Numbered from the stretch's first letter, positions 2,980 through 18,714 are shown. The stretch is DNA of 18,854 nt from Gemmatimonadota bacterium (GCA_031372565.1 JANMLN010000197.1:1-18854); one strand, 5' to 3'. Notes: a model not told the origin generated them from the letters alone. Program-made: numbers and translations.

Positions 2980-3096
2980 TCCAGACGGTCCGCTTGGTCT
3001 CGACGATGCGGCCAAGTGCACTGAAGGAAGACGCGTGATGTGACGGCGAAGAGGACGCTACAAGAGCGTGGCCGTCGGTCGCAAGCTACGTTCGGC
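2980..3096 (-). other. attC site, degenerate (left boundary uncertain, 2951-2990)
   Basis: R'' GCCGAAC (3096-3090) overlaps the end of the ATL gene and matches that cassette's start GTTCGGCGG. Arm gtggccgtcggtcgcaagc pairs only partly with gcttgg...gcggcca. Confidence 0.5.
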
Positions 3097-3499
3097 GGCC
3101 GCGCGCCGAAGTCCTGGCTGCCGTTGTCACGACCGGTCGCGGCGTGGGCGTCACTCCGGTGTTCCGCTTGGTCGGAGAGAATTGCAGCTTCTCGAACCCG
3201 ACGAGCCGACGCGTCGCGTCGAAGCCCAGCCCTTCGGCCTCCAGTAGTTCTCGCTGAGATCGTCCCCGTGCATCGTACTTGGGTCGGCCGAGGCTGCCAT
3301 CGTCTGCGACCACACGATACCAAGGCGTTGCCTCACGGGCGGGATCGTTGAGGCGTGCGAGCAAGAAGGCCACCTGACGCGGGACAACGTCGAGGAAGGC
3401 GCCAATGTCCGCGAAGGTGGCGACGCGGCCCTGAGGGATGGCGGCGGCGACCTGCATCACATCCCGATGGATTCGAGCGAACGCTTCGGACTTTGCCAT
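3086..3499 (-). CDS. Alkyltransferase-like protein (MGMT family, ATL/YbaZ type)
   Basis: IPQGRVATFADIG, PRQVA, and PWYRVV in place of the catalytic PCHRVV; QRELLEAEG. Bounded by attC sites. Confidence 0.9.
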   Translation of the reverse strand: MAKSEAFARIHRDVMQVAAAIPQGRVATFADIGAFLDVVPRQVAFLLARLNDPAREATPWYRVVADDGSLGRPKYDARGRSQRELLEAEGLGFDATRRLVGFEKLQFSPTKRNTGVTPTPRPVVTTAARTSARGRRT

Positions 3500-3528
3500 C
3501 TCACATGCGCGCGAATGTCTGAGAATCC

Positions 3529-3638
3529 GCCGAACGCCGGCGCTTTCTCGCAGGGCCCTTCAATAAGGTGCGGCCAGTGAGCGCCGGCGAACGGGCCGCG
3601 ATCCGTGAAGGCCTTGTCAAAAGCAACGCAGGTGAGAT
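3529..3638 (-). other. attC site
   Basis: + strand: gccgaac..gcgctttctcgcagggcc..loop..ggccttgtcaaaagcaacgc..gtgagat. R' GTTCGGC, R'' ATCTCAC. About 30 bp after the stop at 3671. Confidence 0.8.
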
Positions 3639-3670
3639 GGGTCGGGAGATGCGCCCACGCGCCGGTCGTC

Positions 3671-5067
3671 TCACGGCAGGCGCGGGACGACGAAGTCGAC
3701 GAACATGGAGCGGACGTGGATCCGGAGCGCATCGGCGACGCCGCTGAATCCCACGAAATAGTCGAACGCCGGCACGTAGAACATGTCCGGCGTGATGTGG
3801 AAGACATCGACGTCGAGGCCCGAACCGATGCGGAGGCGGAGGCCGTCGCGGGAGTCGATCACGCGGATCGTGTCACCGTCGGGTGCGACGTAACGTCCGG
3901 CGACCGCGTTGCGCCGAGCGTCATCCACGGCAACGAATAGCGGTCGCGGCGCTCGGTCGGGCTCGCGCCCGGCGAGCACCGCCACGAGGCCACGCTGCAG
4001 AGTGATCAGCGTCCACGGGGCGAGGTCGCTGTTGCTGAGCATCGCCACCGCCTCGCCGCGCGCGCGGTCCCAGTAGGCGAGGCTATGGAATGCGTTGATG
4101 TCGCCGGTGTAGTGGCAGCGTTCAGCGGCATCATCGCAATACCAGCTGAGCCCGTTGATCGCGGAGGGGTGCCCGTCGATGATTGGGCGCGGCTCGCCGA
4201 GCGCGCGCGAATGGCGGGGGGCAGTGCGGTGCCGGTCGCGTGCGCGCCCACCCAGCGCGCGAGGTCGAGGGCAGAGAAGTAGACGTTCGAGCCGCCGACG
4301 AATGCCTCGTTGTCGAAGACGTCGGCGACGACCCAGGCGGTGTCGGCCCATCGATACCCCAACGTGCGCGGTCGGGGAAAATCCGCCAACCGTCCCGGCC
4401 GCGCGAAGCTCGCGTTCATGCCAAGCGGCGCGAAGAATCGCTCCTGGAAGTAGCGCGCGATCGGCTGCCCGGTGACACGCTCGACGACGAGTGCCGCGGC
4501 GTCGAAGCCGAGATTGGAGTACTCGAAGCGCGTCCCGGGCGTGAATCGCGGTCGCGGCATCGCGCGACGCACGGTCGTGAGCAGGGCGACGGTGGTGCGC
4601 AGCTCGTGCGGACCGAAGTACGGGTCGAACGCCTCGTACGAGGGCGGCAGCCCGTTCGTGTGCGTGATCAACTGGCGGACCGTCGTCCCCGCGTACGGAT
4701 ACTCGCGGACGTAGGCGGTGACCGGCGTGTCGATCGCAATGCGCCCCTCGTGCACGAGCGTCCACACCGCGGCGGCGGTGAGCGTCTTGGCGAGCGAGCC
4801 GCCATCCGCGGGGGTGGAGGGCGTGAAGTCGAGGCCGGCGGCGACGTCGGCCTTGCCGGCGCCCCGTGCGTAGACGACTTGGCCATCGCGCACGAACGCC
4901 ACCGCGCCCATGAACGCATGCTCGGCAATGAGCGGCGCCAGCAGCGCGTCCACGCGCGTCGAGTCGATAGCGGTCCAGCCGGTGCGTGCGTCAGGTCGCT
5001 CGCCGATGCGGGCGCACGCCGACAGGACCATCAGCGGGGCGAGAAGGCGCGCGCGCAGACCTGTCAT
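3671..5067 (-). pseudogene. Beta-lactamase-family serine hydrolase lipoprotein split by a frameshift near 4200-4210
   Basis: ORF 4006..5067 has lipobox LSAC, SLAK (SxxK), LITHTNG and YSN. The HYTG..AMLSN C-terminal part continues in the 3671..4765 frame after a (CG)n tract. Confidence 0.85.
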
Positions 5068-5127
5068 GTCACGGGTGCGGGTCCGCCTTGAACTCCGGGC
5101 GGAAGAGAAACGACGCTCGGTCCGCTG

Positions 5128-5835
5128 CTACCGGCATGAACGGGACACCAACTCCGCGGCGCGCGCGTCCCCACGCTCGGCGGCCACGCGGCCATCCGCG
5201 CAGGCCCCCGCCTCGTCGCCCGTGTTGAGCCGTGCACGGGCGCGGCCGGCGTAGGCGCGCGGCCCCGGCAGTCCGGCGTCGATCGACGACGTGAACGCAA
5301 CCAGCGCGTCGGCGTGGCGGCCGGCCGAGCCGAGGGCAATCCCGAGGAAGTACCAACCGGCGGGATCGGTGGGCGCCGCGCCCGTGTAGCGCTCGAGCGG
5401 CGCCACCGCGTCGGCCACGCGCGTGGCATCGATCAGGGCCATGCCCTCGAGCAACTCCAGTTGCGGCGGCGCGAAGCCGAGACGGCGCGCGCGCGCGAGG
5501 TCGTCGAGTGCGGTGCGCGGTTGTCCCATGCGAATGCGCACAGTGGCTCGGCCGGCCCACCCCGGACCGAAGGTCGAGTCGAGAGCGATCGCGTGCGCAT
5601 ACGCCGCCTCCGCGTCGGCCAGCCGGTCGAGTTCACGCAGCGCGCGACCGCGCTGGGCGTGCAATGCGGCCACGCGCGGCGATGCACCAACCGCGGAGTC
5701 GAGGAGGGCGAGCGCCTCTGCCCACCGTTCGCCATCGAGCGCCGCACCGATGCGACTAGCCTGCGCGTCAATGCGTCGCGGGGAGAGCAGCAGCAGGAGG
5801 AGCGCCAACACACCGAAACGAGGGTACGCGAGCAC
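5128..5835 (-). CDS. Secreted tetratricopeptide repeat protein
   Basis: Signal-like LALLLLLLSP followed by TPR helices (RGRALRELDRLADAEAAYAHAIALD; WYFLGIALGSAGRHADALVAF; ACAD). GGAGG upstream of the GTG start. Confidence 0.85.
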   Translation of the reverse strand: MLAYPRFGVLALLLLLLSPRRIDAQASRIGAALDGERWAEALALLDSAVGASPRVAALHAQRGRALRELDRLADAEAAYAHAIALDSTFGPGWAGRATVRIRMGQPRTALDDLARARRLGFAPPQLELLEGMALIDATRVADAVAPLERYTGAAPTDPAGWYFLGIALGSAGRHADALVAFTSSIDAGLPGPRAYAGRARARLNTGDEAGACADGRVAAERGDARAAELVSRSCR

Positions 5836-6050
5836 GAGCCGGATGACGGCCTCCAGGAAACGGGAACGGGCAATTTACCGCCGCCACCTCGAACTCGCCT
5901 TGAACACCAAGAGCCCGTGCGGCGCGAGATCGATCAGCCGACGATGCTCGCCGGTGGAAAACGTCTTCCCGTGCAGCACTTGGGCGGCGACGAGCGCCCC
6001 CGCTCGCTCCGGCACTCCTCGCACACGCCATGAATCACCAACCGGTGCCG

Positions 6051-6301
6051 TGACGTTGGCCCCGTTTCCAGGCAGCGAATGAGGAGAGTCAGGCGGCTTC
6101 GCCGGTCCACGTGTGCTGACGTTGCTGCGTGAACTCCCTGGGGGTCAAGTGTCCCAAGGCGCTGTGGGGGCGCTGCTCGTTGTGGTCGGTCCGCCAGCGC
6201 TCAACGACCTCCCGGACGTGGGCGAGATCTGTGACTTGATGCACGGTGCGGTACTCGTCGCGCAAGCGCCCGTCGAAGGACTCGATATGCCCGTTGTCCG
6301 T
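6051..6301 (-). mobile_element. IS3-family remnant: transposase C-terminus plus right end
   Basis: TDNGHIESFDGRLRDE..WRTDHNEQRPHSALGHLTPREF ends at stop 6089. The minus strand then ends ...GGAAACGGGGCCAACGTCA at 6051, the 5'-TG..CA-3' terminus typical of IS3. Confidence 0.85.
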
Positions 6302-6373
6302 CGCTGCCGTCGTCTTCTGGGCCACGGTCAGCGCAACGTCGCACGAGCGATGTGAACATCCGATGACTTGCCA

Positions 6374-6471
6374 GGCGAACGTACAAGGTTCAACTGCGGC
6401 GCCATCTCGGACGATGCGCAGACGTCGGTCACCGTCAAGCTGGCCCCGCCAGCTCCAACGCGTAGTGAGCG
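6374..6471 (-). other. attC site
   Basis: ggcgaac..aaggttcaactgcggcgcca..tggccccgccagctccaacg..gtgagcg. Arms are very similar to the attC at 16580-16692. 6 bp after the stop at 6478. Confidence 0.8.
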
Positions 6472-6477
6472 TGCGCT

Positions 6478-6750
6478 CTACGGAACGAAGAGGGAGGCGA
6501 GCTTCACGAGTGTGACGTCGAGGAGCGCGACGCCGCCCATGACGAGCCAGTTCACCGTGGGCCGTGGCGTCGCTCCAGCGGTGCGCGAGGCAAGAGCCAG
6601 GATCGCGAAGAAGAACGCGGAAAAGAGAAAGGTGCCACCTTGCCAACCCCACGGCCGGACCGGCGCGAGCGCGGCAAGGAACGTGGAACCGATCGCCATC
6701 CCAAGCAGGCAGGAGTAGAACGTCCGTACAGACAGTGCAGAGGTGGTCAT
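6478..6750 (-). CDS. Small hypothetical membrane protein (about 90 aa, about 3 TM segments)
   Basis: Hydrophobic ORF fills the space between two attC sites exactly. ATG 6750 is preferred because ATG 6786 lies inside the attC. Confidence 0.7.
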   Translation of the reverse strand: MTTSALSVRTFYSCLLGMAIGSTFLAALAPVRPWGWQGGTFLFSAFFFAILALASRTAGATPRPTVNWLVMGGVALLDVTLVKLASLFVP

Positions 6751-6766
6751 CGTGAAGTCCGGGTCT

Positions 6767-6880
6767 GGCGAACGTTCGCGTTCCATGGCAGCGGCCTACA
6801 GAGAAAAGATGCGCCGACCGAGCGCGGCGAGGAAGAGGCGCATCCTGATGGCCGCTGTCAAGAACAACGCAAGGTTGGGC
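6767..6880 (-). other. attC site
   Basis: ggcgaac gttcgcgttccatggcagcggcc..gatgcgcc/ggcgcatc inner stem..ggccgctgtcaagaacaacgc..gttgggc. R' GTTCGCC, R'' GCCCAAC. Confidence 0.85.
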
Positions 6881-6902: not shown

Positions 6903-8045
6903 TCAGGGTGCGCGCCCCCGTGCGGGGAAGGCGGCCAAGAACGCCGTAGCGAAGGGCGACCGCTCAATGGCTGCTTCATCCAGGCGCGTCGCCCACCGCA
7001 GCGCGTCACTGTTCGCCAGCAGCACCAGCGTGAGCCGCTCCGCAGGCGTGTCGCCCAGCACCTTGAGATAGAGCGCGGAGTACTGGCCGTCCCAGAGGCC
7101 GGTGTGCCAGGCGAGGCGGCGGCCTCCAATGCTTCCGAGAAACCAACCCAGTCCGTAGGGCAGCGCGCGGCCATCGGCCGTACGGGCCGACGTCCACAAC
7201 GCCGCGCGGGAAGCCGGAGTGAGCAACTCGCCGCGCGCGAGTGCGATATCAAAGCGGGCGAGGTCCATCGCGCTGGCGATCACCCCACCCGCCGCCCCAT
7301 CCCCCTGGGGCGGCGGTGGATCAGACTGCCGGAGCAGACCGGCCGCATCCACGTGGTACGGGGTTGCCAGCGCGGCGGCGATCGCGGGGGGCAACGGGAG
7401 GCGCCGATGTTGGCGGGCCGCGTGACGCATCCCGGCGGGACGCAACACGAGCGAGTCGACCAAGGCGGAGAACGCCTGCCCGGACACCTCCGCCATTGGG
7501 CGCGACGCCCACGAGTAGGACGGCGGGTTATACCAGAAGCGGGTCCCCGGTGGACCATTGGCTGTCATGGACAGCACATGCCGCAGCGTCAGTTGGTCAT
7601 CGCCGCACGCGTAGTCGCCAAAGAAGATCCCGCCGTCAGCGCGCGCGGCCGTGCAGAACTCCGCGAAGTCGCGGTAGTTGCGCATGGGCCGATCGAGGTC
7701 GAGGCGCCCATCCTGCACAAGGCGCAGGGCGACGACCGCCGAGATGGGCTTCGTGACCGACGCGATGTTGAAGGGCGTTTCGGGCGTCACCGGGATCGCC
7801 CGCTCCACGTTGGCGAACCCGAATCCCCGCGCCAAGGCGACCGTCGTGTCTCGGAGCAGCACGGCCGCGAGTCCGGGAATGCGCAGTTCGTCGCGGAGTG
7901 CATCAAACCGCGCGAACAACGCCTGGGCTGCCGCGGCATCGTCGGGGTCGACCGCGCGCGCCGTCAGCACCGGGCGCCGAGATGTACACGCCATCCCCGC
8001 GCCGATCGCGAGTGTCGACACCAGAATCCGACCGATAGGAGTCAT
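6903..8045 (-). CDS. Beta-lactamase-family serine hydrolase lipoprotein
   Basis: Lipobox GMAC, FNIASVTK (SxxK), PGTRFWYNP, AAGGVIAS, YGLGW, WHTG, LANS. Start at ATG 8045 (alternative GTG 8069). Confidence 0.9.
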   Translation of the reverse strand: MTPIGRILVSTLAIGAGMACTSRRPVLTARAVDPDDAAAAQALFARFDALRDELRIPGLAAVLLRDTTVALARGFGFANVERAIPVTPETPFNIASVTKPISAVVALRLVQDGRLDLDRPMRNYRDFAEFCTAARADGGIFFGDYACGDDQLTLRHVLSMTANGPPGTRFWYNPPSYSWASRPMAEVSGQAFSALVDSLVLRPAGMRHAARQHRRLPLPPAIAAALATPYHVDAAGLLRQSDPPPPQGDGAAGGVIASAMDLARFDIALARGELLTPASRAALWTSARTADGRALPYGLGWFLGSIGGRRLAWHTGLWDGQYSALYLKVLGDTPAERLTLVLLANSDALRWATRLDEAAIERSPFATAFLAAFPARGRAP

Positions 8046-8221: not shown

Positions 8222-8497
8222 CTAGAGGTTGAAACGCAACTCAACGCTCACGCGATCGCCATCGGTCTTCGAGCCGCGCACCTTGGCTGGCACCGCGAGC
8301 AGCGTCCGGCCGTCCTTGCCGCGCCACACGCTCGTGGTCCACCAAACACCGTCGATCCGCGCCTCGACAGGCGTCCGACCCCAGCCATGCGTGACCGGTG
8401 GGGCAAGGCGCTCCGGAACTGGCACGAAGTGCCAACCGCCCTTGCCAGGATACCGGAACAGAATCGCGGTGAACTTGCCGCCGTGCTTCAATCCCAT
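8222..8497 (-). CDS. DUF1905 domain protein
   Basis: GGWHFVPVP..WGRTPVEARIDG..WTTSVW..LLAVPAKVR..GDRVSVEL pattern. Flanked by attC sites. Confidence 0.85.
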   Translation of the reverse strand: MGLKHGGKFTAILFRYPGKGGWHFVPVPERLAPPVTHGWGRTPVEARIDGVWWTTSVWRGKDGRTLLAVPAKVRGSKTDGDRVSVELRFNL

Positions 8498-8546: not shown

Positions 8547-8640
8547 ACCTGACGTTGGGTTGCGCTCCGGGCGCTCCATAAATGCTATGGCGCAGCCGCC
8601 GCGTCCAGATCGTGCCCGTCTGCACCAACCTTCGTGAGAC
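8547..8640 (-). other. attC site
   Basis: acctgac..ggttgcgctccgggcgc..gtgcccgtctgcaccaacc..gtgagac. R' GTCAGGT, R'' GTCTCAC. 2 bp after the PIN stop. Confidence 0.85.
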
Positions 8641-8642
8641 CG

Positions 8643-8885
8643 CTACGTGCGGGATGCGACCGCTCGGTAGCGAACGTGGGGCAGCCCCTCGAAATCCGCG
8701 TCGTGCGTCCAGAGTGTCGCCTCGTACGCGCGAGCGGTCGCATGGATCACGCTGTCCTCGAGCGGCAAGTTCAATTGCGTGCCGAGTGCGGCCGCCGAAA
8801 GAGCGTGCGGCGCCGACAGGTCCACCACCGTCGCCTGCTGCAGGAGCGCGACGGCGTTCAGCGCTGCGCTTTCGTCGCGCTGCTG
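8643..8885 (-). pseudogene. 5'-truncated PIN-domain (VapC-like) toxin
   Basis: QQRDESAALNAVALLQQATVVDL..LPLEDSVIHATARAYEATLWTHDADF is the C-terminal half of a PIN domain. The N-terminal VDSS-type motif, start codon and antitoxin are absent. Confidence 0.8.
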
Positions 8886-9396: not shown

Positions 9397-10542
9397 ATGC
9401 ACGGCATCACCCAGAAGCTCGTCGCGCTGATCGAAACGCACGGATGGGAGCAGGACTTCGAGCGCGCGATCCAGGGTGCCCAGCTCCACGACGTGGCGAG
9501 CGTGCGCGGGATCCGCTGCCTGGCCGACTACCTCGCCTTCGTGGATGCGCTCGTCACCTGGACGCCGCACGAGCGCGGCGATTCACGCTTGATCAACGAG
9601 CAGCTCATCCGGTTCTACTTCTTCCTGGACCAGGAGCCGCTCAAGTCGTTGCAGAGCGCCCTCACCCCCGACGCGCACGCCGTCGCCCTCTCCCCGCTCT
9701 CAGCGTGGATCGTGGAGTTCGCGCAGGTCTGGGGCGCGTACCTCGACACCCTCCCGTCCGCGGCCGAAGTCCAGAGCTTCCGCGACAACCCGATCTTCAA
9801 CTGGGACGAGTACATGCCGCCGCCGAGCGGCTACCAGACGTTCAACCAGTTCTTCGCGCGCCACGCGAAGCCGGGGATGCGCCCCGTCGCCGCGCCGTGC
9901 GACGACCGCGTCATCGTCGCCCCCAGCGACGCGACCTTCGTCGGCTGGTGGCAGGTGAGCCAGCGCTCGCGCGTCTACGTCGAGGACCGCGTGCTCGCGA
10001 TCAAGAACCTGCAGTGGTCCATTCACCAGCTGCTCGAGGGAAGCGCCTACGCGGACCGCTTCCAGGGCGGCATCTTCACGCACTCGTTCCTCGACACCTT
10101 CGACTACCATCGGTGGCACGCGCCCGTGTGCGGCACCGTGCTCGAGGCGCGCGTCCTGCAGGGACAGGCGTACCTCGACGTGACCGTCGGCACGTCGGTG
10201 GTGGACGGGCACACGGTGAACGTGCTCGAGACCCCCGACGGCACCGGCTACCAGTTCGTGCAGACGCGCGGGCTGGTGGTCCTCGACTCGCCCATCGGGC
10301 TCGTGGCCTGCCTGCCCATCGGCATGGCGCAGGTCTCGAGCGTCGTGCTCACCGCCGAGGTGGGTGTGACGCTGCGGAAGGGCGAGGAGCTCGGCTACTT
10401 CCAGTTCGGCGGCTCGGACTTCGTGATGGTGTTCGAGCGCGCGAGCAACGTGCACCTCACGTCGCGTGTGGGCGTGCACGCGCAGCAGGGGAGCTGCATC
10501 GGGCAGGCGTATCCGGTGATGGAGCGGGCGCGACGGCGCTGA
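9397..10542 (+). CDS. psd: Phosphatidylserine decarboxylase family proenzyme
   Basis: TFNQFFAR..PGMRP, IVAPSD, DYHRWHAPV, IGMAQVSS, and KGEELGYFQFGGSD (GGS self-cleavage motif). GGGAG RBS before ATG 9397. Substrate not certain. Confidence 0.9.
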   Translation: MHGITQKLVALIETHGWEQDFERAIQGAQLHDVASVRGIRCLADYLAFVDALVTWTPHERGDSRLINEQLIRFYFFLDQEPLKSLQSALTPDAHAVALSPLSAWIVEFAQVWGAYLDTLPSAAEVQSFRDNPIFNWDEYMPPPSGYQTFNQFFARHAKPGMRPVAAPCDDRVIVAPSDATFVGWWQVSQRSRVYVEDRVLAIKNLQWSIHQLLEGSAYADRFQGGIFTHSFLDTFDYHRWHAPVCGTVLEARVLQGQAYLDVTVGTSVVDGHTVNVLETPDGTGYQFVQTRGLVVLDSPIGLVACLPIGMAQVSSVVLTAEVGVTLRKGEELGYFQFGGSDFVMVFERASNVHLTSRVGVHAQQGSCIGQAYPVMERARRR

Positions 10543-10674: not shown

Positions 10675-10830
10675 AAGCTGCCGCACCCGCTGCATGACGA
10701 ATCGAAGCCGGCGCGGAAGCCGCTCGCGGTGTTCGGCCCGCAGGACGTTCACCATGATCCCGTCGCGCGAACCTGTGTGTGTCCGGCAAGCAAGTCGCTC
10801 TATCATCGGGGCGCACAGCGCGTGACGGGT
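10675..10830 (+). mobile_element. Possible IS1182-family transposase internal fragment
   Basis: Manual translation: LPHPLHDESKPARKPLAVFGPQDVHHDPVARTCVCPASKSLYHRG, resembling the F.YD....C.CPAG..L region of IS1182 transposases. Confidence 0.55.
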
Positions 10831-11050
10831 GATCAAGCCGGTGCGGCAGACCTGCGCCGCCCAGCAGCGGAACTTTGACGCGTTCCGGCACGAGTACAAC
10901 GACGAGCGTCCGCATGAAACGTTGGGGCAGCAGACGCCTGCCTCGCAGTGCCAGGCCTCCTCGCGTGCCTATCCCGCTCGGCTCCCCGTGCCCGAATACC
11001 CGGGGCACTACCTCGTGAAGACCATGAACACCGCCGGAACCTTCCGCCGT
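10829..11050 (+). mobile_element. IS481-family transposase C-terminal fragment
   Basis: QQRNFDAFRHEYNDERPHETLGQQTPAS..SSRAYPARLPVPEYP..VKTMNTAGTFR. No DDE core or ends. Confidence 0.8.
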
Positions 11051-11090
11051 ATCAACCATGGTCCCGGCTGTTCAGCGGCGTCCATCGCGG

Positions 11091-11630
11091 CTAGCGCGGG
11101 CCGGATTTCACGGTGCTGGGGGAGTGAATGGGCGGCGGAATGTCCGTGTTGAAGATGTCCACCATGATGCGCCATTCTCCGTCGGGTTGCCGCTTCCACA
11201 CCGACACCCATTTGCCACGTTCAAGCAATTGTTGACCGTCAGGCCCGAGCATCGGCGAGTCGAAAGTGCCGCGCGTGTATCCCAGATCCCCCGCGGTCGA
11301 CACATCCGCCGCGACCAGCCGCGCTCGGTTCGCGAAGCCAGGAATGCCGAAGACGTGGCGCCACTCGGCGAGAATCGCGGTGCGGCCTTCGATGATTGAC
11401 TCGGCCACTGGCATCATGACCGCCTCCTCCGCGTAGAACGAAGCGGCGCGGTCGGCATCGCGCGCCGCGATCGCGGCCTGCACGAGCGAATCCGCGGTTC
11501 GCAGAGCGGAAAGTGCCTGCGCCGCGTCGGGCGTGATCATTGAGGGTTGCCTGTCGCACGCCAGACCAAGCACCAAGGGTGACACGAGGAAGGCGTATCG
11601 CAATCGTTGAGTCAACAAGGCATGGTGCAT
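11091..11630 (-). CDS. DUF4440/SnoaL-like (NTF2 fold) lipoprotein
   Basis: Lipobox LGLAC; ARDADRAASFYAEEAV..GRTAI..GDLGYTRG..GKWVSVWKRQPDGEWRIMVD. GGAGG RBS before ATG 11630. Confidence 0.9.
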   Translation of the reverse strand: MHHALLTQRLRYAFLVSPLVLGLACDRQPSMITPDAAQALSALRTADSLVQAAIAARDADRAASFYAEEAVMMPVAESIIEGRTAILAEWRHVFGIPGFANRARLVAADVSTAGDLGYTRGTFDSPMLGPDGQQLLERGKWVSVWKRQPDGEWRIMVDIFNTDIPPPIHSPSTVKSGPR

Positions 11631-12069
11631 TCGCCTCCCGGGAAGAAACCGCGCACTCCACTTGGTCCCGCGAGGCCGGACGTTGCGTCGGAATGGCCCG
11701 TCGCTCAATGGAACGGTGATGGTCCGCACCCGAGTCGGTCGTCTGCTCGGCTTGAACTTCCTTCTGTGTACGGAGACTCCGGCAACGGGGGGCGAGGACG
11801 ACCTGGCGCGCTCCTGCAACTGACGCACCAGAGCGTCGGCATGCGAGCGCCGGCGCGTTCCGGGCCTGCGCGGGTGCGTCGGCGTGGCACCGCGTCGCGG
11901 CGTCCCCGTCTTGGCGTCGTGGCTTCGCGGTGCCGCACCCGATCCGCGAGTGTGGCGGCCGAGCCACGGAGCCGAATGCCGACCGCTGTCGTCATTTGCA
12001 CCCCGCAGGGCCGTTACTTGTCACCGATGACGCGGCGGCGATTGAAGCTGGTGATCTCACGTCCCAGCG

Positions 12070-12085
12070 TGGCGCAAGAGTTGCA
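12070..12085 (+). promoter_or_regulatory. Sigma54 (-24/-12) promoter
   Basis: TGGCGCAAGAGTTGCA has exact GG-N10-GC spacing, about 90 bp upstream of a PEP-CTERM gene, a known association. Confidence 0.7.
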
Positions 12086-12173
12086 GTGCCGCACTGTGTC
12101 GAGTCGCGCGCGATGCCGCGCGCCTGTTGTTGCCTAGCGGGGGCCGAACCCCCCGCGCACCGGAGTGCTTCCC

Positions 12174-12869
12174 ATGCGTTTCCGTCACCTCGCTTCCGCC
12201 CTGCTTCTCGGCTCGATCATGCAGCCCGCGATGGTCGGGGCGCAGTCCATCAACCTCGGCACGGGGTTGAGTGCGGGTGGGGTGGCGCTGGCAGACGGCG
12301 CCACCGATCCCTTCTGGACGACGTCCGTAAACGGCGGAGCCACGTTCTCGGCCGCCAAGGTGTTGGGCAACAGCTTCAACACGCCGTGCGGGTGCAGCAT
12401 CCTCCCGAACGCACTGTCCGGCAAGTGGATCAACACCACCGGCCAGATCGGCACGGGATGGCCCATCGGCCAGACGGTCTACACGCGTCGCTCCTTTGAC
12501 CTGTCCGGTTACGATCTCACGTCGGTCCTGCTGTCGGGCTCGTTTGCGGTCATGGACAGCAACCTCGGCCTCTACCTCAACGGCACCCTGCTCCCGGGGA
12601 CCACGCTCCTGTACCCGAGCTACACCCCCTGGTCCTTCCTCACCAACTTCTCGGTGCTGGGGACGAGCGGACTGTTCAACGCCGGGGTCAACACGCTCGA
12701 GTTTCGTTCGACCAGCGTGAACTCGATCTACGACGGCGTCATGCTCCAGAAGGCCAGCGTCGACGGCGACTACACGCCCCCGGCGACGGTGCCCGAGCCC
12801 GCGAGCTTGGCGCTCATGGCCACCGGACTGGTCGGCGTGGCGGTCGTGGGGCGGCGTCGGCGCCGCTAG
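12174..12869 (+). CDS. PEP-CTERM sorting domain protein
   Basis: N-terminal signal peptide, Thr/Ser/Gly-rich beta-sandwich-like body, C-terminal VPEPASLALMATGLVGVAVVGRRRRR. Confidence 0.95.
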   Translation: MRFRHLASALLLGSIMQPAMVGAQSINLGTGLSAGGVALADGATDPFWTTSVNGGATFSAAKVLGNSFNTPCGCSILPNALSGKWINTTGQIGTGWPIGQTVYTRRSFDLSGYDLTSVLLSGSFAVMDSNLGLYLNGTLLPGTTLLYPSYTPWSFLTNFSVLGTSGLFNAGVNTLEFRSTSVNSIYDGVMLQKASVDGDYTPPATVPEPASLALMATGLVGVAVVGRRRRR

Positions 12870-13293
12870 CGCCGGGCGCGCGAGCTGAACGCAATACGGG
12901 GCGCCGGTCAGTGACCGTCGCCCCGTTTGCTTGTGATGCCATGCCGAAGTGTGTCGGCTGGTGTCCGATCACCTGCACCGCCTGCAGACGGTCTGCGACG
13001 ACCGCGTCGCGCGCCCGTGCTCTTCGCGCGCGCATCGACGCCAGCAACCGCTCAGTCGCTGAGGTGATGCGCGTGCGTCTCGGTGGATCCGGCGACCGCC
13101 ACGCGGCGCGTCGGCTGCATGTGGACGTGTCGCAGCCGTGCTTCTGACAGTTCAAGACCAGTCTGTTCCGTAGATCGGACCCGACCTGCGACAGCCCGAC
13201 GCCGGCTCCTCGCGTTTCTGGCCAAAGCGATCAAGTCGCGACGCTTACGCCTCGCGGGACGCGCGCCCAGTGCGCGGCCACACTCGTCGCGAT

Positions 13294-13803
13294 TCAACGC
13301 GTGACGTCCGGCTCGCCCTTTAGCTGCCGCTGATACTCGGCGTCATCGAAGTGCCCGTCGGATGTCAGCAGGAGTCCGTTTGGCCCAAAGGTCCAGCGCT
13401 CGTATCCTCTCAGATTCACTGCCTTCCCGGTGCCTCCGGGCCCCGTGTTGGTTCCCGTCCAGGTCCAGTGGAATACGGTCTCGCCCGGTTCCTGTCGCAG
13501 CGAGTCCAGTCGAACGACCATGTCGGGAAACGCGGCCATGTACGAGCGAGCCGTCTCCACGATTGCGGCCCGCCCGACGGAGGCGGCGCCGTTCACGATG
13601 AGCGAGCCGTTCTCCTCATACATCTCGCCGAAGCGAACCGGATCCTTGCCGCTCCACGCGGCGGCGTACCGAGTCGCGAAGCCCGGGCGATCGTCCGCCG
13701 CCGCGGGCTTCTGTTCCGGACTGCACGCGACAACGAGTGCGGCGCACACGCACGTCGCATAACCTACGAAGCGCTGGTGGCCAATTGATCGCGCCCAGTT
13801 CAT
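13294..13803 (-). CDS. SnoaL-like / ester cyclase family lipoprotein
   Basis: Lipobox LVVAC; YAAAWSGKDP..GRAAI..AFPDMVV..HWTWTGTNTGPGGTGKAV..GYERW. ATG 13803 is used because ATG 13908 lies inside an attC. Confidence 0.9.
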   Translation of the reverse strand: MNWARSIGHQRFVGYATCVCAALVVACSPEQKPAAADDRPGFATRYAAAWSGKDPVRFGEMYEENGSLIVNGAASVGRAAIVETARSYMAAFPDMVVRLDSLRQEPGETVFHWTWTGTNTGPGGTGKAVNLRGYERWTFGPNGLLLTSDGHFDDAEYQRQLKGEPDVTR

Positions 13804-13850: not shown

Positions 13851-13946
13851 GCATAACGTTTGCGCTCAGCGGCAGCGGCATCAAATGGAAGCGCGCGAAA
13901 GGCGCCATCCATAGCGCCGCTGTCCGAGTGCAACGCTGGGTCAGGC
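13851..13946 (-). other. attC site
   Basis: Minus strand: GCCTGAC ccagcgttgcactcggacagcggcgc...gccgctgccgctgagcgcaaac GTTATGC, a textbook bulged stem. Confidence 0.9.
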
Positions 13947-13979: not shown

Positions 13980-14378
13980 TCAGCTCGAGGGAATCGCTTC
14001 GTGAAACTGCAGCACGTTTCCTTCAGGATCGACGCCATCAGCATAGCGCCGACCCTCGGCCTCCCACTCCCGCTCAACAGCGTCCAGCGCGCCGCCGACC
14101 TCGGCCGCGACTGCGCGTGCGCGCAGCAACGATGCCACCTCGAACGACAGTTTGATGGTCGCCTCCTCTCGGCGCAGCGGCGGCACGTCAATCGTGAAGG
14201 TGGCCGCAATGTGCGCGGGGATGGCGTGCAGCATCAGCCGCGAGCCGCCAAGACGTAACTCGACGATGGACGGGCGCTCTTCCACGGCCGTGACGTCAAG
14301 GACTCGGCGATAGAACGCCGTCATGACGCCGAGGTCCTTGGCGTAGAGCACGGCATTGAAGCCGGAGGAAACGCTCAC
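13980..14378 (-). CDS. VOC/glyoxalase family protein
   Basis: VLYAKDL..MTAFYRRVL..IKLSFEV..DGVDPEGNVLQF. AGGAG RBS. Confidence 0.9.
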   Translation of the reverse strand: MSVSSGFNAVLYAKDLGVMTAFYRRVLDVTAVEERPSIVELRLGGSRLMLHAIPAHIAATFTIDVPPLRREEATIKLSFEVASLLRARAVAAEVGGALDAVEREWEAEGRRYADGVDPEGNVLQFHEAIPSS

Positions 14379-14427: not shown

Positions 14428-14523
14428 GCCTCACGTGTGCTTCTGCTGCGGACACTCAACATAGAAGGCGGGCGTGCAGCGCCCGCTACCTCAGCGTGGC
14501 TGTCAGCAGAAAGTTCGATATGC
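14428..14523 (-). other. attC site
   Basis: gcctcac gtgtgcttctgctgcggacac..gcgggcg/cgcccgc inner stem..gtggctgtcagcagaaag..gatatgc. R' GTGAGGC, R'' GCATATC. Confidence 0.8.
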
Positions 14524-14575: not shown

Positions 14576-16483
14576 CTAACGCGGTTCCTCGACCCATACT
14601 GGCACGCGCGTCGTCACCGGCGGGCCAAACGTTGACGTGACTTCAAGCACGAGTGTACCCGCCCGCCTTGGGGCCACAAGCACGTCCATCGTTTCGCCAG
14701 GCGCGAGCAGTTGATCCGCGGCCACTCTCACGCGCTGTCGTGCTGAGAGATCCGCGCCGTCCTTCGCCACGACCGTCCATTGCAGGACCGCCTCGCCCTC
14801 CAGGAGTCTCACGTGCTTCACTGCAACGGCACCAATGCTGATGAGGCGGATGCGATGGGTAGTGCCGGCTGCGAGCCTGATCGGCACTGGGTCTCTGCGA
14901 CCATTGATCATCGACCCCGCCGGTGCGCGGACTGAGTCGGCGGTCGAGTCGGCGAGCACGATGACGCGCTCGTCGAGATCGGGTCGGCGGTTGCGTGCGC
15001 GAACGATCATCGCGCCGTAGAGCCCGCCCGTCAGTTGGTTGAGCTCGCCAGCGTGGGTGTGATAGATGAACGTGCCGGCGCGCGGCGGCGTCATGTGCGC
15101 CACGAAGGAGTCGCCAGGTGCGATAATCGGGGCGACGCGAGTTCCGGCTCCGCTCCAGCCCGCGACGCCATCATAAAAGCTCTCGAGCTCCATTCCGTGC
15201 CAGTGAACGGCCGTCGGTTGCCGGCTTCGATTCACGACGGTGATTGCGGTCGGCTCACCCTGCAGGAGTTCGATTGTGGACCCGGGAAGCTCGACAGAAT
15301 CGCGTGCGGGCTCGCGCCCGTTGCGCTGCAGCACGTATGCCAGCGACGGACTGCCGCCGCTTGGCGCCGCGCGCTCTGTGACGAAGAGTCGTAGACCCCG
15401 CCGCGGGGTCTCCGCGGTCTCCGCGGCCTCCGCCGACTGGGGCGCTGGGCGCACGCTGATCGCCGTGATGAGTCCTGCCATGACGTCGGAGACCGTGCCG
15501 TGGTCTGCGTGCGTGTGTGCCCCCGCTGCCGAGCCCAGCCGAAGCGCTTCGTCAATGTGGCTGATGGTGTGGCAGTGGAACAGCCAGTTCCCGGCGCGCT
15601 CGGCCTTCCAGCCCATCGTCATCGATTCGCCGGGCAACAGGAACTCCGTAACCACCAGCCGAGACGCGGCGCCAAAGGCCGAGTCCGTGAATGGCGTGCC
15701 GCGCGACTGCACCCGAAAGTACGTCCCGTGCAAGTGCATCGGATGGCTATGCTGGCTGAGATTGAGCACTCGCCAGCGAATCGAGTCGCCTTGGTCGTAC
15801 GTGAGGCGTTCTGTGAAGGGCCAAGATTGACCGTTGATCGCGAACACTTGCCGGGGGCCGTACGGCGAGGCGGGATTGCGGAGCGAGTCATCCCACGCCG
15901 TCATGACGAGAAGCCTCTCGCGCGAGTTCTGGACGCGTGAGTCGGTGCCCGCTGAGTCGACGATGAATGCGGCGACAAGCTGTGAGTCATCACGTCGGCT
16001 CAGCAAGGTCGGTGTAGGGGTCGTGCGCGCGAAGTACGCAAACGTCCCTGCCCGTCGAACGACGAAGCGCAGCTCGCGCAACTCTCCAGGGGCAAGAGAC
16101 ACGGAATCACGTCGACCATCGTGCTCGTGCAGCCCGTGCACCGTGGCACGTTCAGCAAGACGGTTGCGGATGGTGATGCGGAGGCGCGTGCCGGAGGGGA
16201 CGCGGATCAGAGGTCCAGGCACAGTCGCCGGTCGCCCCACTTCTGCAAAGCCGGACACGTCTACATCGAGAGTGCTCGGTGCATTCGGACGCCACGTCAT
16301 TCGCCGCACCTCGAGCGCAAGCGAGTACTCACCATCCTGTAGCCTGCCTGCAATCTCACGGTGGTTGTTGCTCGTGAGGTCGGCGACATCGGGGCCTGCA
16401 CTGCGCGCACCGATGGTCGCCAGGACAACCAGCGGAGCGAGGAGCAGCGTGTTCGCTCGTGACCGCGGGCGTGGGGGCGTCAT
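14576..16483 (-). CDS. Secreted multicopper oxidase with about four cupredoxin domains
   Basis: PGPLIRV, HPMHLHG, WLFHCHTISH, PGSTIEL, VHWHG, GTFIYHTH..GLYG. Start at ATG 16483 because the longer ORF would cross an attC. Confidence 0.9.
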   Translation of the reverse strand: MTPPRPRSRANTLLLAPLVVLATIGARSAGPDVADLTSNNHREIAGRLQDGEYSLALEVRRMTWRPNAPSTLDVDVSGFAEVGRPATVPGPLIRVPSGTRLRITIRNRLAERATVHGLHEHDGRRDSVSLAPGELRELRFVVRRAGTFAYFARTTPTPTLLSRRDDSQLVAAFIVDSAGTDSRVQNSRERLLVMTAWDDSLRNPASPYGPRQVFAINGQSWPFTERLTYDQGDSIRWRVLNLSQHSHPMHLHGTYFRVQSRGTPFTDSAFGAASRLVVTEFLLPGESMTMGWKAERAGNWLFHCHTISHIDEALRLGSAAGAHTHADHGTVSDVMAGLITAISVRPAPQSAEAAETAETPRRGLRLFVTERAAPSGGSPSLAYVLQRNGREPARDSVELPGSTIELLQGEPTAITVVNRSRQPTAVHWHGMELESFYDGVAGWSGAGTRVAPIIAPGDSFVAHMTPPRAGTFIYHTHAGELNQLTGGLYGAMIVRARNRRPDLDERVIVLADSTADSVRAPAGSMINGRRDPVPIRLAAGTTHRIRLISIGAVAVKHVRLLEGEAVLQWTVVAKDGADLSARQRVRVAADQLLAPGETMDVLVAPRRAGTLVLEVTSTFGPPVTTRVPVWVEEPR

Positions 16484-16579
16484 GCGACGGTCGGTATCGC
16501 GGCGAGCGCCGAATGTGATGAAGGTGGGAAGCCGACGGCGGTCGTCAGTGGTGCTCCTGCTTGAGAGGAGGGATGGTCG

Positions 16580-16692
16580 GCATAACGAAAAAGGTTCAGC
16601 TGCGGGGCCATCGGACGAGTATGCCGCTGGCGTGTGCAGCGAGCAAGGTCGCGGTAGGGCGACCTGGCCCCGAGCTCCCACGAGCGTTAGGC
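16580..16692 (-). other. attC site
   Basis: R'' GCCTAAC contains the toxin TAA stop. Arms ggttcagctgcggggcca / tggccccgagctcc; R' GTTATGC. Confidence 0.9.
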
Positions 16693-16989
16693 GCCGGTCG
16701 CGATCTCGTCCGGGTCCCAATCCTGGCGGCCGTGGCGAATCGTCAGGATGACGATCTGCGTCGCGTCGATGCGGTAGACGATGCGATACGGTTTGTGCTG
16801 GAGCTGCCGATACGCCGCCTTGCCAATCTCCGGGACGATATGTCCGCGCTTGGCAAACCGATCTAGGCTGGCGACGCGCGCGAGCAGCTCCTCGAGCCAG
16901 GCCTGCGCAGCGTGCGGGCGGTCCAGGGCGATCCGCTCGACGGCCTCCAGCGCCCGGAGCTCGGCGAGCGGCGACCAGACGACCTTCAC
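16687..16989 (-). CDS. RelE/ParE family toxin
   Basis: MKVVWSPLA..I..DRPHAA..RGHIVPE..PYRIVYRI..IVILTIRHGRQ. GTGA overlap with the antitoxin. Confidence 0.92.
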   Translation of the reverse strand: MKVVWSPLAELRALEAVERIALDRPHAAQAWLEELLARVASLDRFAKRGHIVPEIGKAAYRQLQHKPYRIVYRIDATQIVILTIRHGRQDWDPDEIATGA

Positions 16990-17267
16990 CGCCCCAGGCG
17001 TGCGCGCAGGCGCTTGGCGACCGCGGCGTGGCTCACGCCCTTGCCTGCGGCGACTTGCGCTTCGGCTTGGCGCACGTCGCGGAAGAGCGCGAGCTCGTCC
17101 ATCATCGACTCGTACGACTCCACGTCGAGGAGGACGGCGGCGCTGCGGCCATGCTGCGTCAGGATGACGGGTGCTCCGGTCTCGCGCACCTGGTCGATGA
17201 ACTGCGCGGCGTTCGCGCGGAACTCGGTGACCGGGTGAATGTCACGCGTGGGCTTGAGCTTCGACAC
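16986..17267 (-). CDS. Phd/YefM family antitoxin
   Basis: DIHPVTEFRAN..FIDQVRETGAPVILTQHGRSAAVLLDVESYE. GGAGG RBS. Confidence 0.92.
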   Translation of the reverse strand: MSKLKPTRDIHPVTEFRANAAQFIDQVRETGAPVILTQHGRSAAVLLDVESYESMMDELALFRDVRQAEAQVAAGKGVSHAAVAKRLRARLGR

Positions 17268-17292
17268 GGGGGCCTCCGCAGGGGGTCGCGTT

Positions 17293-17332
17293 CAGTACAG
17301 AATAACGTACAGAACCGATGACGGACGCGCAA
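17293..17332 (-). promoter_or_regulatory. TA cassette promoter with autoregulatory operator repeats
   Basis: TTGCGC-N17-TACGTT. Direct repeat TTCTGTAC x2 with GTAC cores at 17295 and 17307 (12 bp apart) overlapping the -10. Confidence 0.65.
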
Positions 17333-17345
17333 GCGCTCGTCGCGC

Positions 17346-17467
17346 GCCTCACGTGTATTAGGCCGAGGGCAGCAATCATCGTCGGCTCGCAGTTCCACAC
17401 AGCAGGCTGTCGGACCGCGAACGCACGGGTGTTTTGCCGCGCTCGGGCACATTCCAGCGGGTTGCGC
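17346..17467 (-). other. attC site, degenerate
   Basis: gcctcac..ccgagggcagcaa pairs with ttgccgcgctcgg..gttgcgc. R' GTGAGGCGC matches the TA cassette R'' GCGCCTAAC. Confidence 0.65.
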
Positions 17468-17532
17468 AACGAACGTGGATGACTCGACTAACGCTCGACT
17501 TCCAGACAACGCGGGCCGAGCATGCCTCCGTT

Positions 17533-17883
17533 CTATGAACAGTAGAAGGGTAGTGAGTCTATGACGACCGCTCCCGCTGCGAGAGTGACCACCTTGTCTG
17601 GCCAGCCGCCGCCATTCACGATCTGCGCGCCAAGCGTGTGCTGCCCGACCGATGTCGCGAACGCGCGTGAGGTCGTGCGGTCGCCACCAGCAACAGCGAT
17701 CCTGAAGGTGTCGGCTGCGACCAGCGCACCGTCGATGTAGAGCCGGACGGGAATGATCGAGCTGCAGGCGTACGGAATGAGCCTGAAGTAGACAGTTGGC
17801 TGCGGGGCAACGGACCGGGAGCCGTCGCATGAGACGAGTGCGGACGCGACAACGCTGAGTAGTACCCGAGGCAGAACCGACAT
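17533..17883 (-). CDS. Hypothetical lipoprotein (about 116 aa)
   Basis: GGAG RBS, three tandem ATGs (17883-17889), lipobox ALVSC, beta-rich body. Lies between two attC sites. Confidence 0.75.
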   Translation of the reverse strand: MSVLPRVLLSVVASALVSCDGSRSVAPQPTVYFRLIPYACSSIIPVRLYIDGALVAADTFRIAVAGGDRTTSRAFATSVGQHTLGAQIVNGGGWPDKVVTLAAGAVVIDSLPFYCS

Positions 17884-17916
17884 CATCATCTCCGTTCGGA
17901 CTCTGTGCGGGTTGCG

Positions 17917-18054
17917 GCCTAACGATTTGTGCTTCAGCGGCGGGCGCCACAGGGAACTGAGCGGCCGCGCCATCCGCCGATCAACATCGGGGCGCGGCCG
18001 CGACTCGTCAAACGGAGCCCCTGGCGCCCGTCCGCCTGCAAGCACGGGCTAGAC
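17917..18054 (-). other. attC site
   Basis: gcctaac..gtgcttcagcggcgggcgcca pairs with tggcgcccgtccgcctgcaagcac (three bulged bases)..gctagac. R' GTTAGGC, R'' GTCTAGC. Confidence 0.92.
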
Positions 18055-18064
18055 CGCAACACAG

Positions 18065-18661
18065 TCAAGTAGCCTCGTCTGCGGATCGTCGGCGTTGCCA
18101 GTGCAGTGGCAGGGCGATCCGTTTCTCGATGTCGCCCGACCAAACCGGCGCCATTCCGTGACGCCGCAGTACCGCGTCGACCTCGCGCGCCACAGCGGCG
18201 ATCCCCTCGTCGTTCCCGCCGAGCGAGCCATAGTTCAGAAAGAGGCCCCCACCGTCTACCGCGTGTTCGGTGTCTTGCTCGTGATAGAAGGTGTAACCTC
18301 GGGCGCCCCTGCTGACCGCCGCTTGCACCTCGTCGCAGATCTCCGCGGTGCCACATGTCCCGCAGCAGGTGTAGTTCTGGCGAGCCAGGATCCCGCTGTT
18401 CTCGAGCGCGGCGAACGCGGCATCGAGCCGATCGCAGTCAGTGGTTGCAGGCCACGTGGACTGCTGCTTGAGCTGGTCGGCCAACTGGTCGCTGGCGAGG
18501 CGGGGGGCAAGTTCCGCGAGTGTGGCCTCGGGCGCCTCGCCGGCAAGGTCTTCGATGGCACGACGGGCAATGTCGGGTGCCGGCACAAAGGCCCCGGCCA
18601 CGTCGCGCCGGATGGCTTCCCGCAAATCAGCGATTACATCGTCGAGCGGTCGCGTGTCCAT
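18065..18661 (-). CDS. DUF6891-like hypothetical protein
   Basis: WPATTDCDRLDAAFAALE..GILARQNYTCCGTCG..GYTFYHEQD..LFLNYG..WQRR. ATG 18661 lies 14 bp after a core site. Confidence 0.8.
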   Translation of the reverse strand: MDTRPLDDVIADLREAIRRDVAGAFVPAPDIARRAIEDLAGEAPEATLAELAPRLASDQLADQLKQQSTWPATTDCDRLDAAFAALENSGILARQNYTCCGTCGTAEICDEVQAAVSRGARGYTFYHEQDTEHAVDGGGLFLNYGSLGGNDEGIAAVAREVDAVLRRHGMAPVWSGDIEKRIALPLHWQRRRSADEAT

Positions 18662-18675
18662 AATGCCCGGTTGCG

Positions 18676-18714
18676 GTCTAACGTGTGCTTCTGCTGCAGC
18701 CGCTTCCATAAAAA
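18676..18714 (-). other. attC half-site (R' arm), interrupted
   Basis: gtctaac gtgtgcttctgctgcagccgc ttccataaaaa shares gtgtgcttctgctgc with attC 14428. No partner arm follows in the window. Confidence 0.75.

Follow-up and report, generated by a model that had tools for sequence, protein, structure and literature searches.

Integrons, CALINs and inverted integrases are already known. In the Vibrio cholerae superintegron and the integrons of Xanthomonas, an integron integrase (IntI) and an attI site are accompanied by tandem attC cassettes in one orientation, with IS insertions, and these features recur at the locus described here, which differs from both in that attI lies downstream of intI, several attI sites are present per intI, the attC sites are of several types rather than one repeat family, and those in the window are mostly decayed. 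Toxin-antitoxin cassettes, such as the one found here, occur in sedentary chromosomal arrays (PMC13108822). The position of attI downstream of intI is shared with the inverted (‘reverse’) integrons of Treponema; this arrangement is described in PMC4889954, which calls the group paraphyletic, and archaeal attI sites also lie downstream of intI (PMC9668308). The passages of these two papers that deal with inverted layouts name Treponema/Spirochaetota, one Acinetobacter and archaea, and Gemmatimonadota is not named in them. As in the CALIN (Cury et al. 2016, PMC4889954), in our locus attC sites are clustered and no intI adjoins them, and mobilisation of CALINs in trans has already been proposed (PMC9668308; bioRxiv 2025.06.18.660453), but in clusters of the present kind a copy of the host's attI stands at the head, so that they could receive cassettes, not just donate them. 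IntegronFinder, as described in PMC4889954, recognizes attI by exact match to classes 1–3 only, and would thus miss solo attI sites of this kind. We found no published description of multiple attI-headed arrays per integrase.

The window, that is, the whole stretch of 18,854 nt analysed here, belongs to a genome (G000) in which attC sites, discrete cassettes, a single intact IntI and three attI-like sites are present, and in which decay increases with distance. From its sequence, we consider it probable that the window is the old end of an inverted-layout sedentary chromosomal integron, most likely of Gemmatimonadota, in which two array ends stand in tandem and IntI would act in trans.

Cassettes and attC sites of the window

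The features are given below by coordinates and strand. R1 and R2 are covariance models trained only on attC sites from outside the window, R2 being the broader; S1 to S12 are the candidate sites.

2980..3096, minus: S1, heavily decayed attC remnant, last site at the distal end
3086..3499, minus: cassette gene with MGMT-type DNA-binding domain (PF01035), stop codon inside S1
3529..3638, minus: S2, attC, cores AAC/GTG (R2 28.6 bits, E 1.3e-5)
3671..5067, minus: serine hydrolase, beta-lactamase/PBP family (PF00144, 168 bits)
5128..5835, minus: TPR protein (domain search), attC on neither side (R2 scan)
6010..6330, minus: IS remnant, integrase core rve_3 (PF13683, 70.9 bits), bounds approximate, DNA matches on contigs C156, C114 and C116
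6374..6471, minus: S3, attC, AAC/GTG (R2 E 3.5e-4; R1 E 6e-5)
6478..6750, minus: small hydrophobic cassette gene, no family in domain search
6767..6880, minus: S4, attC, AAC/GTT (R2 E 2.2e-4)
6903..8045, minus: PF00144 serine hydrolase cassette, with a copy in G094 at 86% identity
8095..8199, minus: S5, attC, AAC/GTG (R2 E 3.2e-8)
8222..8497, minus: DUF1905 cassette gene (domain search)
8547..8640, minus: S6, attC, GAC/GTG (R2 E 3.1e-9)
8643..8840, minus: PIN-domain gene, 3' part only, from a broken cassette (PF01850, 23.4 bits vs cut-off 23.6)
9397..10542, plus: inserted non-cassette gene of the phosphatidylserine decarboxylase family (PF02666), on the opposite strand
10829..11152, plus: IS integrase-core fragment (PF13683, 30.1 bits)
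11091..11627, minus: SnoaL/DUF4440 gene (domain search)
11677..13017, plus: relic bounded by two stretches common to elements elsewhere in the genome (DNA matches), which we take to be IS91/ISCR-like
12174-12869: PEP-CTERM gene enclosed in this relic (domain search)
13294..13803, minus: SnoaL cassette gene (domain search), own attC lost here
13851..13946, minus: S7, attC, AAC/GTC (R2 E 2.3e-10)
13980..14378, minus: glyoxalase-like cassette gene (domain search)
14428..14523, minus: S8, attC, CAC/GAT (R2 E 3e-8)
14576..16483, minus: multicopper oxidase cassette (domain search), counterpart with canonical ends in the complete genome G233
16580..16692, minus: S9, attC, AAC/GTT (R1 and R2 matches)
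16687..17267, minus: Phd/YefM-ParE toxin-antitoxin cassette (PF02604, PF05016), first behind the probable internal attI
17346..17367, minus: S10, probable attI, core CCTAAT-ACAC-G|TGAGGC, crossover 17352/17351 (attI profile 20.4)
17533..17889, minus: probable lipoprotein gene, no family, between the upstream array and the probable internal attI, non-cassette in relatives
17917..18054, minus: S11, attC, AAC/GCT, at the end of the upstream array (R2 E 9.8e-7)
18065..18661, minus: DUF6891 cassette gene (domain search)
18676..18714, minus: S12, left part of an IS-split canonical attC, remainder at G000:C119:150-249
18715..18854, plus: end of an IS inserted in S12, presumably ISL3-type to judge from its GGTTCTTC ends, with an 8-bp target duplication at 18707-18714

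The central claim of the original prediction, an integron cassette array, is upheld, as nine of its eleven full sites (S2 to S9 and S11) were recovered in place by the two models. R1 gave E<0.01 for seven of the nine, with E=0.03 for the site at 3529, E=0.44 for that at 6767, and a match ending at 6468 for that at 6374, while R2, searched over 77 kb, gave E<=3.5e-4 for all nine. In every case where both strands match, the plus strand scores higher, which fits minus-strand genes. Covariation is upheld within the training sets, where 95% of cells are paired, a value reached by none of 500 shuffles. R and L boxes, extrahelical bases and a bottom-strand hairpin are found in the nine full sites and in the IS-split one, and the attC sites run from an 11-bp overlap with the preceding gene to 52 bp beyond it, in keeping with the predicted spacing of 0–65 bp. 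Twelve sites had been counted in all: the half-site at 18676 stands beside the nine, whereas that at 2980 is a remnant and that at 17346 scores as an attI. The half-site is indeed an attC cut by an IS, whose 8-bp duplication CATAAAAA is present again on contig C119; with the IS removed, the site folds at -44.2 kcal/mol and its AAC/GTT core is intact. This IS end has a copy on C112, its opposite end lies on C119 and C106, and its 28-aa piece has no Pfam match. S1 was missed by both R1 and R2, and we call it a remnant because its 3' arm is 83% identical over 41 nt to a relative's attC and its tail, GTTCGGCGG, equals the head of its own cassette, at S2, at 9/9 nt.

The palindromes might instead be unrelated repeats, REP-like or of the terminator type, that lie at gene ends, and not recombination sites. 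Bottom-strand folding, put forward as a check, gave z -3.4 for S4, z -5.7 for S11, z +1.9 for S1 and z -0.1 for 17346-17481; several sites fold no better than shuffles, and such z-scores are not enough by themselves to tell old sites from chance. Other abundant short repeats also lie near contig ends in this genome. We nevertheless give this explanation almost no credence, since it is refuted by the exact crossover boundaries of the cassettes, and the model matches, the head-to-tail matching, the intact IntI and the lack of any Rfam match also stand against it. Repeats scattered genome-wide were not seen either: when 150 of 8104 candidates were scored with R2, at least 30 matches fell on 11 of 201 contigs, mostly clustered. 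Generic repeat finding and Rfam searches gave nothing useful, and a hand-made hairpin scan was dropped after recovering one window site on the correct strand.

The cassettes behave as units with their crossover at G|TT. Each tail agrees with its own cassette head at 5.1 of 7 nt and with other heads at 3.8 of 7 (permutation p=3e-5), and whole cassettes with canonical ends were found again in G233 and G151. Homology of the multicopper oxidase cassette to G233 ends at the AAC|G crossover, 16586/16587, and in G151 the Phd/YefM-ParE cassette has a canonical attC on either side. The array is interrupted at 8641-13850, where about 5 kb consists for the most part of DNA other than cassettes. The G185 homologue of the phosphatidylserine decarboxylase gene has no attC nearby. 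The SnoaL/DUF4440 gene at 11091..11627 is possibly a former cassette: its G109 homologue (85%) is directly preceded by a head-like motif, xTAAC, and an R2 search of that G109 locus found no attC. Homologues of the second SnoaL gene, at 13294..13803, have attC alongside in G289 and G106. Lost cassette heads were searched for in 3700-6380 and 8700-13860, and none was found. The apparent frameshift near 4201 in the serine hydrolase gene at 3671..5067 is probably an assembly error; two bases are absent at that position in contigs from three of four read runs.

The integrase gene and the probable internal attI

A single intact intI is present in the genome (C195:34045-35126), with none on C22 or C119. 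Its product is free of stops, scores 407.6 bits against TIGR02249 (cut-off 265), and aligns over its full length with VchIntIA/2A3V, including the IntI-specific insertion and the R-K-H-R-H-Y residues. By position and by a motif conserved in the genus, its attI lies downstream, at C195:35280-35301, so that intI is co-oriented with the cassettes and attI is on its 3' side. The same motif is downstream of intI in 14 of 21 intI loci of relatives, and in 24 named loci it is downstream in nine and upstream in none. The prediction that attI and intI would lie to the right is right in part: the array does run on through the IS into C119, but the only intI is on C195 and in the inverted layout. The predicted Gemmatimonadota host gains support, as the closest IntI among named records comes from a Gemmatimonadetes MAG (67%) and 14 of 39 related loci carry Gemmatimonad- names; judged by this likeness, the host is probably Gemmatimonadota, bearing in mind that intI can move between genomes. 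IntI scored over the cut-off in 26 of 41 genomes, and is thus common in this little-studied phylum.

One array of twelve attC sites is not what the window holds, as S10 is most likely an internal attI landing site. The stretch 17346-17467 was missed as an attC by both R1 and R2. A profile of attI built from other genomes (the 14 intI loci of relatives), run over 8.87 million positions of this genome, ranked C125 first, C195 second and S10 third; a fourth match, C158:50830, was rejected because it is inside a gene, but its score of 19.4 is close to the 20.4 of S10. S10 has the attI core arrangement of this lineage (inverse box, 4-nt spacer, G|TT, here altered in its last base) at a cassette head, without a pairing attC arm. 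Since its third core base is changed and its upstream boxes are degraded, S10 may no longer work as an attI; its platform may extend to about 17500. A DNA search of its 241-nt region against 300 genomes gave short weak matches and no homologue, and a sigma-70 consensus scan upstream of all three attI sites (C195, C125, S10), which may not fit this lineage, gave no match.

A rival explanation would be a single sedentary integron of the ordinary kind, broken up by IS elements and by assembly, with S10 a badly decayed attC and the array leading to the intI of C195. IS ends do break C22, C73, C6 and C89, integrons split by IS are given as a source of CALINs in PMC4889954, and S10 has a weak, imperfect hairpin 65 bp after a gene. 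We regard this explanation as improbable, because S10 scores 20.4 as an attI and all 26 attC junctions tested score 4.4 or less, its spacer is 4 nt and theirs are 5–8 nt, and the gene upstream of it does not occur as a cassette in other genomes (400 genomes gave 15 homologues, and of 14 examined none adjoins an attC). Moreover, the attI on C125 heads a young array of its own.

Extra attI sites and dispersed arrays

This second attI, on C125, has no intI beside it, and its array continues into C73, to which C125 is joined by a 141-nt overlap; cores on the two contigs are canonical at 6/6. Because the genome holds at least one more attI lacking intI, a physical link between the window and intI is not required. 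The window itself has at least two attC sites with no intI nearby, as in a CALIN, which may be an effect of draft assembly. A search for end overlaps and target duplications found no partner for the right ends of C119 and C195 or for the IS end of C73. In four of five complete relatives, a biased rate since the five were chosen for cassettes in common with the window, a single IntI is present and attI copies head arrays 230–790 kb from intI; these remote copies show 72–87% identity over 59–209 nt. The array headed by a solo attI in G233 has 28/28 canonical sites. G094 has remote attC clusters, and no second attI was found in it.

Such arrays might be dead leftovers of integrons that were duplicated or acquired and then cleanly lost intI, with no loading since. 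Among the routes to CALINs listed in PMC4889954 is that one of several integrons loses its intI, S10 and the window sites are plainly decayed, and the left box of S10 is closer to other genera's attI than to that of its own genome, which would fit a foreign origin. We find this explanation unlikely in view of three observations. In the 5 kb upstream of each of 11 solo attI sites there is no convincing remnant of intI, and tblastn gave two weak matches there (E 0.034 and 0.037), one of them in a phage-type integrase gene; the arrays behind solo attI in G000 and G233 are young, although these attI copies have diverged by about 14–17%; and S9 is 90% identical to a young attC of another array (C125:794-908). 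Among the matches listed from contigs of four runs of one study, in which rare forms are dropped, no cassette-skipping or excision joints were seen.

We therefore prefer to read the locus as two array ends served by a distant integrase. Read in gene direction, from right to left, the locus would begin with the end of an upstream array (C119, the IS-split S12, DUF6891, S11) and continue with one non-cassette gene, the decayed attI S10, and a sub-array from the toxin-antitoxin cassette to S1. As expected from established integron chemistry, IntI would fold the bottom strand of a cassette and insert it at attI, pushing older cassettes outward, and the single IntI of C195 would act in trans on attI platforms that have no integrase gene of their own. 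A wider reading, for and against which we see the case as evenly balanced, is that of a dispersed integron in Gemmatimonadota, in which one integrase gene serves several copied attI platforms of ~60–250 bp, each the origin of a satellite array that has a first position of its own; platforms would also be copied behind existing arrays, as in this window.

Core decay and the fate of old cassettes

The view of the window as the distal, old end of a sedentary array agrees with its decayed cores and with a rise in GC, from 0.63–0.64 in young cassettes to 0.686 at 2980-8640. Canonical AAC/GTT cores remain in two of its nine attC sites, as against 80 of 82 in G233, so that seven of nine are decayed. 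The third base of the GTT core is changed at 21 of 44 positions, the second base at six and the L box at four. GTC/GAC as a new, compensated core type was rejected, since on inspection the changes in the two arms co-occur no more than by chance. Fixation of old arrays mainly through loss of this third base is part of the dispersed-integron reading and shares its even standing; positive selection for locking cassettes, a mutational hotspot and survivorship may each account for the loss, and are not separable here. With core triplets that no longer pair, most cassettes of the window would now be nearly immobile and thus on the way to becoming normal genes of the chromosome, in an array that IS elements are breaking apart.

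As an integron the array is unremarkable, in a phylum that has been little studied; it is the layout that matters. The window displays a late stage of cassette domestication, for which young and old copies of the same cassettes can be paired. If cassettes are loaded in trans at solo attI sites, the textbook view that an integron consists of one intI with one attI and one array would fail here, and the origin and activity of CALINs would become testable. Closed or cultured genomes in which two to three attI copies accompany a single integrase offer a natural test. If the dispersed-integron reading is true, many ‘CALINs’ would be live landing pads and not relics.

Recombination sites and cassettes of the window

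To avoid circularity, models of the cassette recombination site attC were trained without window sequence, R1 on 10 sites from other contigs of the window's genome and R2 on 23 canonical sites from that genome (outside the window) and five related genomes. In the R2 training set, 95% of cells were paired, which none of 500 shuffles reached, and slid controls gave 23–46%. R1 recovered nine of the 11 full sites, seven with E<0.01, and R2 recovered the same nine at exactly the coordinates first read, all with E<=3.5e-4. The original prediction counted about 12 attC sites; these nine stand, together with the half-site at 18676, while the palindrome at 2980–3096 is an attC remnant and that at 17346–17467, missed by both models, is better read as the landing site attI. 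The half-site is a real attC, split by an insertion sequence (IS) that we take to be of the ISL3 type; contig C119 carries the opposite end of the IS, the duplicated CATAAAAA and three further canonical attC sites, and with the IS removed the half-site, rejoined, folds at -44.2 kcal/mol. Since the remaining two ends of the same IS (C112 and C106) have a different duplication in common, the pairing of the window (contig C22 in its entirety) with C119 is unambiguous. Genome-wide, R2 gave at least 30 matches on 11 contigs (150 of 8104 candidates scored), mostly clustered and thus not scattered regardless of gene ends. The integron cassette array of the window is real and old.

After insertion, the first six bases of a cassette are expected to match its own tail, not that of its neighbour. 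Outside the GTT core, own head–tail agreement was 5.1 of 7 nt vs 3.8 for other pairings (10 cassettes, permutation p=3e-5); low matches were confined to three cassettes, two of which span inserted DNA, while the third (6374–6471 to 6767–6880) does not. The multicopper oxidase cassette recurs in the complete genome G233, where homology stops at the AAC|G crossover and the sequence reads GTTATGC, vs GATATGC in the window, and the Phd-ParE cassette recurs in the relative G151 with canonical sites on both sides. The window cassettes are discrete units. The stretch 8641–13850 (about 5 kb) is mostly non-cassette DNA, comprising a PIN fragment, an opposite-strand decarboxylase gene, IS fragments and a presumably IS91-like relic enclosing a PEP-CTERM gene. 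Two bases at 4201 are absent from read-derived contigs of three runs, so that the frameshift in the hydrolase gene at 3671–5067 is probably an assembly error.

Both AAC and GTT are kept in 2/9 full window sites vs 80/82 in G233, and cores on C119, C73 and C125 are canonical in 9/9; GC is 0.63–0.64 in young cassettes, 0.656 at 13851–18714 and 0.686 at 2980–8640, which bears out the placing of the window at the old end of an array. Because in class 1 integrons one non-complementary core, at the second base, cut recombination from 2.2e-3 to 6e-6 (PMC2811028), we infer that most window cassettes may be nearly fixed. Among 22 old sites of the genome (the unalignable C109:12973 was dropped), changes hit the third core base at 21/44 positions, vs 6 for the second base, 1 for the first and 4 for an inner L-box position (Fisher p=0.001 and 0.0001, for non-independent sites and models that favour intact stems); loss of the third base may reflect selection, a hotspot or survivorship. 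Decay as a step to fixation has already been described, as have inverted integrases, attC clusters lacking an integrase (CALINs) and IS-split arrays (PMC4889954 and PMC3575428), and toxin–antitoxin cassettes hold back excision, according to PMC13108822.

Other attC sites occur elsewhere in the genome. Two near-identical attC sites (C106:51030–51120 and 52522–52612) lie in a duplicated stretch, each adjoining the end of an IS91-like element, a possible rolling-circle capture of a cassette. Contigs C6 (locus L010) and C109, which overlap by 60 nt, form a second long decayed array, C6 ending in an IS3-type element, and a lone attC of 38 nt that has lost its middle lies away from any array at C10:94237–94274. 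Unrelated to attC is a roughly 30-nt repeat, abundant and clustered at many contig ends (e.g. C106, C129, C56, C179).

The integrase and its attI in the host and its relatives

The draft genome (4.44 Mb, 201 contigs, 96% complete) probably belongs to Gemmatimonadota, in line with the original prediction and on indirect evidence: among titled records the nearest locus of the integrase IntI is a Gemmatimonadetes MAG (67%), and 14/39 related loci bear Gemmatimonad- titles. Four sequencing runs from a single freshwater-sediment study contain the window's DNA, and one of them may be where it came from. The phylum figures among integron-bearing phyla in PMC8618304 and PMC10500605.

A single intact IntI is encoded on C195. 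About 170 bp downstream of intI, and on its strand, lies an attI candidate, behind which the first cassette runs off the contig. This cassette (locus L003, 2469–2570) holds the start of a short protein, whose 34 visible residues gave no Pfam match. An AAY-N4-GTT core lies within 500 nt after intI in 14/21 relatives' loci, and on this sequence evidence the inverted layout, with attI downstream of intI, is the rule among relatives. IntI exceeded the cut-off in 26/41 genomes, the window's own counted. Five complete relatives each carry one IntI at E<=1e-30, and in four of the five, a rate biased because these genomes were picked for cassettes shared with the window, attI copies head distant arrays.

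attI copies in complete relatives
G233: 86% over 59 nt, 787 kb from intI, at the head of 28 canonical sites; plus a shorter third match
G106: two copies, 86–87% over about 208 nt; exactly three strong copies in the whole-genome search
G052: 79% over 85 nt
G153: 78% and 72% over about 170 nt

No attI copy heading a distant array was found in the fifth, G094; of its 116 R2 matches, most among those listed fall in C1:1248000–1376000, a large array directly behind an inverted intI. The two copies in G106 and in G153 stand in tandem, 15–25 kb apart, and weaker second attI sites occur in the draft genomes G004 and G007. A tblastn search with five IntI proteins for intI remnants, covering 5 kb on the upstream side of 11 solo sites, yielded just two matches, both weak (E 0.034 and 0.037). 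IS-type transposase genes adjoin two of the attI copies (G007, G233); IntI-driven movement or uptake from relatives are alternative ways in which such copies might arise. In G007, a phage-type integrase and a transposase precede the second attI-like site (L049 6172–9070), which may therefore have been brought there by an island. The G106 platforms L146 and L148 have an inverted repeat of 12 bp that runs up to the left box and, some 180 bp upstream, a further palindrome, hairpin-like for an attI. In G004, a solo attI-like site (C143; L042 550–570), adjoined by what are presumably LPS-core genes, precedes a short cassette that has an internal duplication and apparently no gene.

Additional putative attI sites in the window's genome

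A second copy of the C195 attI core, with no intI nearby, heads six canonical attC sites that are spread over C125 and C73. A 22-nt attI profile, built from 14 relatives' cores and none from this genome, was run over 8.87 million positions and ranked C125 first (29.4), C195 second (26.5) and window 17346–17367 third (20.4), while all 26 attC junctions tested scored <=4.4; on these scores the 17346–17467 site, predicted as an attC, is probably a decayed attI. This reading fits the absence of attC beside any of 14 extracted homologues of the gene upstream, and the first attC behind (16580–16692), which keeps its core and shares 90% identity with a young site. Counting against it are a weak hairpin, decayed upstream boxes, a thin margin over a false match (20.4 vs 19.4) and the lack of a homologue of the region in 300 genomes. 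That fourth match lies inside a gene; the fifth (19.2; C89:4100–4121, L011), which heads a cluster of two attC sites, is a possible fourth attI. Sites 16580–16692 and C125:794–908, both in apparent toxin–antitoxin cassettes (the C125 pair presumably HicAB-like), are identical over a central stretch of about 56 nt and differ in the arms, including a lost extrahelical base.

A proposed dispersed integron

The attC bottom strand, once folded, is recombined by IntI with double-stranded attI; cassettes are therefore added at the attI end, and earlier ones are pushed outward. In the proposed working, one IntI would act in trans on attI platforms that lack an integrase. On this reading the window runs from an upstream array, ending at 17917–18054, through a spacer gene to an older attI with a sub-array of its own, which is decaying and being cut up by IS elements; this tandem arrangement resembles the paired attI copies of G106 and G153. 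In-trans mobilisation of CALINs has already been proposed (PMC9668308 and bioRxiv 2025.06.18.660453). No literature was found on multiple attI-headed arrays per integrase, nor on Gemmatimonas integrons, in searches that judged most matches by listing and covered subscription journals thinly; the PMC4889954 supplements may list these genomes' elements. We give an even chance to a dispersed integron in Gemmatimonadota, in which one integrase gene would serve several copied, integrase-less attI platforms, each seeding a satellite array. Across the lineage, the genomes compared suggest a layout of one integrase and several attI-headed arrays.
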